In this document: piece after piece, positions 18,660-20,072 of the stretch | How the letters are laid out: every line of letters begins with the position of its first letter | Numbering within the stretch: the first letter of the stretch is position 1 | DNA from: Eledone cirrhosa | Lineage: Eukaryota | Length of the DNA: 64,000 nucleotides | Assembly: GCA_964016885.1 (NCBI GenBank) | Contig: OZ024751.1 | Coordinates: forward strand, 51,460,001 to 51,524,000 | Direction: 5' to 3' | The notes under the pieces: model-generated | Database searches by the model: none | Seen by the model: the letters and a program-made list of their open reading frames with translations, nothing else | Told to the model about the DNA's origin: nothing | Translations under genes and position numbers: made by a program

Positions 18660-19149
18660 CATTATCATCATAATCATCATCACCATATAACATCCATTTT
18701 CCATGCTATCATGAGTTAAATGGATTGTCCTGTAATGAGGCAAGTCAAATCAGATGATGGTGCCTTGCTCATACAGAAATGATTCTGGCTTGGTTTCTAT
18801 GTCTAGATGCTCTTCCTAACACCAACCACATAGTGTGGATTGGGCACTTTTGTTGTGTCTCCAGCATGACCACTTTACAGGTTGAGCTGGGAGCTTTTTG
18901 TCATGTTACCAAAATGCCCTCTCTAGAGGGTGGGCTGGGTGATTATTGTCATGTTGTACTGAGGTGTGGGTGTATGTATGGTGGGGCACTTAGCTGATGA
19001 GGAGGTGGAGTGATTAAGATGTGTATATATATATCATGTTTAATATAGAAATGGCTTCTACACGACTAGAGCTGTTTCATTCAATAGAAATCATCAAGAA
19101 ACCCCTAATTGAACACAGGACTCATATATCTCTCTCTATATGTATATAT

Positions 19150-19182
<33 letters not shown>

Positions 19183-19424
19183 TCTATTTAAAATCCATTT
19201 TTTCATGCTGGCATGAGTTAGACAACTAGCCCTGTTGTGAGCAATGCCAGGTCAGGTGACCATGTCTTGCTCATACAAGTATATATATATATATGCAAAA
19301 GTTCTATTTAAATTGTTGGGATACAACAAGAAAATATTTTTATAACTGATATAAAGCACTCAACAAGTATTTGGAGTAAACATACGATATTAACAAATGA
19401 AAACTATATTTATAAAACCATATT

Positions 19425-19489
19425 TATTTTATTATACATATTTCAAGGACACCACGTTAAATTATGGTATGCTTTCGTCAGACAAAATA
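19425..19489 (-). ncRNA. Hammerhead ribozyme, left arm of the palindrome
   Basis: Mirror of 19651-19715. Confidence 0.8.
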
Positions 19490-19650
19490 TAATATAGATC
19501 AGTTTTATAAATAAATATTGACATACCCTTAAAAAATGCAACCATTACTGTTGGAAGTTCCAGGATAGTCACTATCCTGGAACTTCCAACAGTAATGGTT
19601 GCATTTTTTAAGGGTATGTCAATATTTATTTATAAAACTGATCTATATTA

Positions 19651-19715
19651 TATTTTGTCTGACGAAAGCATACCATAATTTAACGTGGTGTCCTTGAAAT
19701 ATGTATAATAAAATA
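19651..19715 (+). ncRNA. Type I hammerhead ribozyme
   Basis: TATTTTGT-CTGACGA-AAGcATACCAt...TGGTGTcCTT-GAAA-TATGTA-TA|ATAAAATA: 8-bp helix I, extended helix II. Confidence 0.8.
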
Positions 19716-19963
19716 AATATGGTTTTATAAATATAGTTTCCATTTGTTAATATCGTATGTTTACTCCAAATACTTGTTGAGTGCTTTATATCAGTTATAA
19801 AAATATTTTCTTGTTGTATCCCAACAATTTAAATAGAACTTTTGCATATATATATATATATATATATTTGTATGAGCAAGACATGGTCACCTGACCTGGC
19901 ATTGCTCACAACAGGGCTAGTTGTCTAACTCATGCCAGCATGAAAAAATGGATTTTAAATAGA

Positions 19964-19996
<33 letters not shown>

Positions 19997-20072
19997 ATAT
20001 ATATACATATAGAGAGAGATATATGAGTCCTCTGTTCAATTAGGGGTTTCTTGATGATTTCTATACATACAT

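Follow-up and report, generated by a model that had tools for sequence, protein, structure and literature searches.

Background

Penelope-like elements and their non-autonomous derivatives are recognised by their targeting of TA, by an inverted copy placed head-to-head and by a minimal type I hammerhead, according to the available portions of PMC8557442, PMC3846280, PMC8969392, PMC7229834 and bioRxiv 2026.07.22.740005. Self-priming has been proposed for the head-to-head palindromes of Penelope elements, there on antisense RNA (PMC3846280, in excerpt). A Penelope protein has been seen to nick both strands in vitro and to extend them; the accessible text of that study describes the second-strand step as unvalidated and the origin of the tandem and inverted Penelope-like structures as unresolved (PMC11167929). 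In R2, snap-back of the cDNA occurs mostly after full-length cDNA has been made (PMC11371274, in the sections available), and fold-back with inverted duplication has been reported at L1 insertion sites (bioRxiv 2024.12.14.628481, also in excerpt).

In this study, we report the analysis of a 1-kb palindrome centred on a candidate hammerhead ribozyme element, within a window of 64,000 nucleotides of Eledone cirrhosa DNA. As far as the available text of the sources allows a comparison, the locus resembles Penelope/Poseidon, Neptune and Naiad in its head-to-head inverted 5'-truncated copy, junction palindrome, TA-microsatellite target and type I hammerhead, and in having no clear target-site duplication; arms of unequal length, as in the neighbouring copies of this locus, are likewise described for Penelope-like insertions. 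It differs from these elements in that no ORF is present in the element, and in that the inverted arm, which in the Penelope-like elements described there consists of element sequence only, here crosses the 3' junction into approximately 210 bp of host flank. With the animal non-LTR retrozymes, in the portions of the literature available, the element shares a short AT-rich non-coding unit, a predicted type I hammerhead and a helix III of one base pair plus tetraloop, but the focal element is an inverted dimer and not a tandem array. As in R2, where the 3' end of the cDNA serves as a primer on its own strand ahead of joining (PMC11371274), the second arm would start from the cDNA end; the R2 data, however, come from an engineered element in human cells, and read-through past the 3' junction into the target is not described in the sections available. 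For L1, the accessible text describes small inverted duplications on the reciprocal end, and fold-backs on the reverse transcription end that accompany large rearrangements in cell lines and tumours, whereas at the focal locus, which comes from an assembled animal genome, a 1-kb palindrome lies on the reverse transcription end and has been healed locally.

Head-to-head palindromes of Penelope-like elements and L1 insertion-linked inverted duplications are thus already known from the text available, and what appears new here is the read-through into flank. No account of host-flank read-through by a Penelope-type element was found in the available text of the literature searched, with the Penelope structure papers of 2001-2006 and supplements lying outside the search, and the accessible portions of PMC12910113 and PMC9977147 contain nothing on a flank-copying structure.

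Results and discussion

Structure of the palindrome

Self-alignment of the window revealed mirror arms at 19084-19569 and 19571-20064 around the single central base C19570. The alignment of the arms comprises 483 matches, 3 substitutions (at 19116/20032, 19279/19861 and 19400/19740) and 8 gap columns, the latter representing additional TA sequence of 2 and 6 nt, with the right arm (494 bp) being longer at both. Another inverted arm in the window, at 1670-2188, is longer, at 519 bp. The palindrome is real as a sequence feature, with the few substitutions and TA-length changes that the original prediction had described for it. Judged from the sequence, the analysis also confirmed that the locus consists of a predicted ribozyme element lying head-to-head with its own mirror copy, and that the mirror continues for about 210 bases into what appears to be older DNA (Table 1). 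The 1-nt loop described at 19570 holds only in a formal sense, as the central base. Family matching ends at about 19567 in both the paralog 20924-21104 and contig record 24, and the apex lies 2-3 nt further; since these two other copies end there, the apex is read as a 5-nt insert at 19568-19572. The non-coding unit at 19295-19567 therefore measures 273 bp, or 275 bp when counted to 19569.

Substitution divergence between the arms is 3/486, or 0.6% (95% interval 0.13-1.8%). The element part differs at 1/275 positions and the flank part at 2/211 (Fisher p = 0.58, a comparison of low power), and this similar divergence is what a single event predicts, the test being a weak one. All five arm differences could be placed in the right arm as copying errors. 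A derived state of the left-arm base at 19400 is suggested by the right-arm base being that of the paralog 20924-21104, yet the copies at 43873-44211 carry the left-arm base. The arm differences are not usable for dating the event, because their polarity is not settled by other copies or contigs; taken in the original prediction as an argument against a library fold-back chimera, they do count against a simple chimera but need not mean age.

Table 1 Features of the palindrome locus and other hammerhead-core inverted pairs in the window
Feature	Position	Strand	Evidence or remark
Older decayed hammerhead-like element	19024..19125	-	only 19084-19125 duplicated; paralog, contigs, core 6/7
TA/TC microsatellite and (ATC)11 LINE tail	19126..19182	.	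sequence
5'-truncated 3' UTR tail of APE+RT LINE	19183..19277	-	73% to 41121-41224
TA target tract, putative first-strand priming site	19279..19294	.	sequence; other copies likewise end in TA
Left hammerhead element copy (top strand in putative first-strand cDNA sense)	19295..19567	-	hammerhead 19425-19489
Apex: self-complementary 5-nt insert past the apparent 5' end of the family	19568..19572	.	centre C19570
Right, inverted element copy	19573..19845	+	type I hammerhead 19651-19715, predicted cleavage after 19707
Inverted host-flank duplicate	19846..20064	+	TA tract, LINE tail, (GAT)11, microsatellite, 42 nt of older element
Rejoining junction, putative other target half	20062..20131	.	terminal TAT of right arm meets ACAT/TA tract
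Other hammerhead-core inverted pairs	1670-2747, 16695-17047, 20132-20490, 31200-31960, 41585-41973, 43873-44211

The hammerhead element and its family

The central element carries a type I hammerhead ribozyme as predicted from its sequence, built of an 8-bp stem I, CUGACGA, stem II, GAAA and a one-pair stem III with tetraloop, with predicted cleavage at an AUA triplet. The type I core (CUGANGA, GAAA, NUH, stems I-III with stem I open) was matched by the structure descriptor at 19659 on the plus strand and at 19481 on the minus strand. The descriptor gave 7 matches in the whole window, whereas 50 shuffled versions averaged 0.06 matches and never exceeded 1. When six copies were compared, 98% of 102 stem cells were paired and both sides had changed in 5/17 pairs, figures to be read with the six rows amounting to about two subfamilies and the structure itself having been drawn from the same rows. 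Rfam returned no match at the gathering threshold across the window and no hammerhead family among 87 matches to E 10 in 18900-22600; its miRNA matches were trivial hairpin and TA matches and were discarded.

Four further copies of the family are present in the window, at 20924-21104 (93%), at 22270-22447 and in both arms of 43873-44211. TA stands at the end of all 6 aligned copies, and contigs have TA loose ends at 19332, 19382 and 19387, so that the element shows insertion into TA microsatellites with variable 3' ends. An inverted copy lies head-to-head at the 5' end of the element, as in Penelope-like elements. No tandem copy of the focal element, of the kind that forms retrozyme units, was found in the window. 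Pattern scans found no locus of a relative in the metagenome, viral or prokaryote contig collections. By analogy, the element is likely to be a non-autonomous Penelope-type hammerhead element. Motif scanning and an ORF search found no Penelope ORF (linked RT and GIY-YIG) within the window, and the family link to Penelope accordingly rests on likeness, with the partner enzyme assumed.

Contigs from 4 of the 10 listed runs were placed on 18690-19605, with bins at 19124-19185 skipped as repeats; the depth of 26,000-29,000 at 19558-19605 was left unused, as it may represent contigs placed on the mirror stub. For organism D (X4 and X5, one sample), the summed depth was at least 373,936 in every element bin of X4, which hints at a very abundant element family, summed depth being no copy number. 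Over the same bins, the summed depth of the contigs of organism B (X2) was 0-435.

The duplicated flank and the template arm

The flank present in both arms consists of the TA tract, the 3' tail of a LINE with (CAT)11, and 42 nt of the older element, which is the composition that had been described for it. The LINE we take to be of an RTE-like clade; upstream of its relative at 41121-41224, the sequence matches the C-terminus of the RT ORF 32280-35471. The older element had been called hammerhead-like, a description borne out by 6/7 core letters, although it gives no descriptor match.

This older element runs on leftwards past 19084, as the paralog 22178-22218 shows by matching 19041-19083 at 84%. 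In organisms B and D, contigs cross 19084, spanning 19024-19094/19120 (records 10-14, 18 and 25), and contig depth is high at 19031-19092 in both organisms. In the right arm, the same element is cut off at 20064 and joined there to the ACAT/TA tract. The left arm is therefore read as the original and template, as had been proposed, since the older element crosses 19084 in contigs but stops at 20064. No loose end at 19084, no joint at the apex and no contig for the right arm was present among the matches listed for contigs on 18690-19605, and no orthologous empty site was seen in the small shares of X1 or X2.

Both flank repeat families occur in abundance in organism B, which almost lacks the focal element. 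Because the element is abundant in organism D and near-absent in B, which shares the flank, 19084-19294 is best regarded as pre-existing host DNA. That it could instead be a constant part of the element, the finding that would have undone the original prediction, is barely conceivable: this flank is missing from all four other family copies in the window, and in two bins between the flank families the summed depth of X4 is down to 782 and 1,425, against the values in the element bins.

Both arms share two states that are rare in the family, G at 19477 (0.15% of X4 summed contig depth) and A at 19331 (0.3%), and have the same 3' end, which indicates that one arm was copied from the other. The apex lies at what would be the 3' end of the cDNA with the second arm copied from the first, as in a snap-back product. 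On these sequence comparisons, the right arm is to be read as a copy of an already completed insertion junction.

Origin of the inverted duplication

The explanation that we favour, and to which we would give about an even chance, is a single insertion into the TA tract in which the end of the cDNA folded back, copied the element and some 210 bases of flank, and rejoined the tract. Reverse transcription would start from a nick at about 19294, within the TA tract, and yield the top strand 19295-19569, whose 3' end would self-prime at 19568-19572. A DNA-templated polymerase, either the reverse transcriptase of the element or a host repair polymerase, would then copy as far as 19084, displacing the partner strand or following it after resection, and the new end would anneal to the far side of the tract through about 3 nt of TA microhomology (TAT). 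The position of the apex at the 5' end of the element and the overall geometry fit target-primed reverse transcription followed by fold-back copying, and all five local inverted repeats with arms >100 bp, identity >95% and a spacer <100 bp contain a hammerhead core. The original prediction of hairpin-primed second-strand synthesis running through the junction thus agrees with the host flank, the template arm, the apex and the geometry. Counting against snap-back is the lack of a strong predicted hairpin at the apex: the best fold of the cDNA end lies elsewhere within it and reaches -1.7 kcal/mol with z about 0. Two cDNA ends that annealed with a mismatch at the centre would account for the apex equally well. 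Copying at a later time, copying via RNA from the locus, and replication with fusion of the ends would each give the same sequence as copying during insertion.

Against snap-back as the rule, none of the other 6/7 hammerhead-core palindromes in the window extends past the element. Moreover, the short arm with its end at 44211 and the independent solo copy with its end at 22447 terminate at one and the same element position, which fits two priming events and the two-strand extension seen in vitro; fold-back may therefore not be the usual route of this family. The wider claim that these elements can generate inverted duplications of the target site is based on this locus, 1/7 of the palindromes in the window. 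That Penelope-type hammerhead elements finish their insertion by boundary-ignoring, DNA-templated snap-back and, where a genome has very many copies, regularly write inverted duplications of host DNA, with this locus a fossil of the unvalidated second-strand step, is a tentative idea that we would sooner doubt than accept.

An ordinary head-to-head pair may instead have formed first and been extended into the left flank by a later template switch or cruciform repair, a sequence of events that we regard as rather unlikely. Flank-free head-to-head pairs are the rule both in the window (6/7) and in the available literature, there seems to be active template switching nearby (a 9-nt difference in 41585-41973 that resembles a micro-inversion, and a 26-bp fold-back at 10942-11005), and in yeast it is established that breaks close to inverted repeats fold back (PMC10622511, in the text available). 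Such an origin, however, needs two events at one young locus, and the divergence of the arms is alike in element and flank, weak as that test is. Two events would also be needed if a solo copy had produced a read-through RNA, running from its 3' end into the flank, that was reverse-transcribed head-to-head into its own TA tract as a 3' transduction in cis. Here the right end at 20064 looks like other 3' junctions, with an AT-rich end entering TA, the older family ends in the same 8-mer at 19045-19052 and 22207-22214, and the arm differences may all be confined to the right arm, where errors of the reverse transcriptase would fall. In the accessible text, Penelope proteins initiate internally on RNA and can cut their own repeat (PMC11167929). 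An exactly symmetric apex with no intervening TA would nevertheless be unexpected, solo copies joining TA directly at their 5' end (21104), and we consider this origin improbable.

A symmetric apex would be obtained if the broken end bearing the cDNA had been replicated, the sisters fused head-to-head, and a break 494 bp from the fusion rejoined, as proposed for L1 fold-backs on the primary reverse transcription end (bioRxiv 2024.12.14.628481, in excerpt). This would require that the product broke very close to the fusion point and was repaired onto the right neighbour in a germ line, and the arm lengths match those of the other local palindromes, which leaves breakage and fusion very improbable. 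We attach a similarly slight probability to a library or assembly artefact. Strand-displacement amplification makes inverted chimeras, no confirmation of the right arm came from the contigs among the matches listed, and the unique left flank is covered by no contig at 99% among these matches. On the other side stand the five differences between the arms and the right arm, which rejoins new sequence rather than mirroring further. The other palindromes in the window diverge in grades, from 1/519 to 6/193, and because of this gradation the class as a whole is biological.

Returning to snap-back copying during insertion, an arm that crosses the junction cannot arise from two priming events on element-only RNA, so that loci of this kind separate the insertion models. 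Flank-copying palindromes can be counted in any good assembly, which would provide a test of the open step in Penelope insertion, and if they proved common, the elements would be giving rise to long palindromes of host DNA. Long palindromes are fragile sites and templates for double-stranded RNA. The present case is one locus in repeat DNA, with no gene copied, and has no evident function.

Other palindromes and repeats in the window

In all six other hammerhead-core inverted pairs (Table 1) one arm stops within the element at a TA tract; the cores of 4/6 of them match a loose pattern only. An additional decayed pair lies at 47935-48185, within a decayed hammerhead-like palindrome at 47790-48310 that is kin of 20132-20625 and is interrupted near 48186 by a SINE-like insertion. 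This census leaves out the inverted pairs 49516-52158, 11149-13021 and 23054-23395, which were read as independent SINE/LINE insertions (about 67-91% alike). The related elements at 16640-17047 and 31200-31960 have an inverted copy of the 3' end, with spacers of 285 and 384 bp that hold the hammerhead core. Between the arms of the palindrome 41585-41973, a 9-nt cluster (41741-41749 versus 41809-41817) looks micro-inverted, and the outer flanks (41530-41990) share an inverted 6 nt plus TA, which may be due to chance. A retrozyme-like tandem array with a hammerhead core, of another family than the focal element, is found at 1670-7350, having about 16 units of 310 bp that are 99.8% alike (array at 2229-7350), a 519-bp inverted arm with 1 base difference, and TA at both ends.

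The solo element 22270-22447 has at its 5' end a TA tract with a 13-nt inverted match across it (22204-22281). No other of the 185 TA tracts has a non-microsatellite outward inverted match of at least 10; this one may represent the reciprocal end duplicated over a short length in inverted orientation, as in L1, or an inner repeat of the family. A perfect 26-bp inverted repeat with a 12-nt spacer, in which no hammerhead was seen, is located at 10942-11005, its right arm ending in a TA tract.

The background of the window is AT- and microsatellite-rich animal DNA with APE+RT LINEs. An uninterrupted LINE frame of 1,063 codons encoding APE, RT and a PHD finger lies at 32280-35471 on the plus strand, with relatives at 52980-56027 and 50670-51725 (94-95%). 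A large sodium/calcium exchanger exon (PF01699) was found on the minus strand at 26329-27474. The palindrome lies about 6 kb away and may for that reason be intronic.
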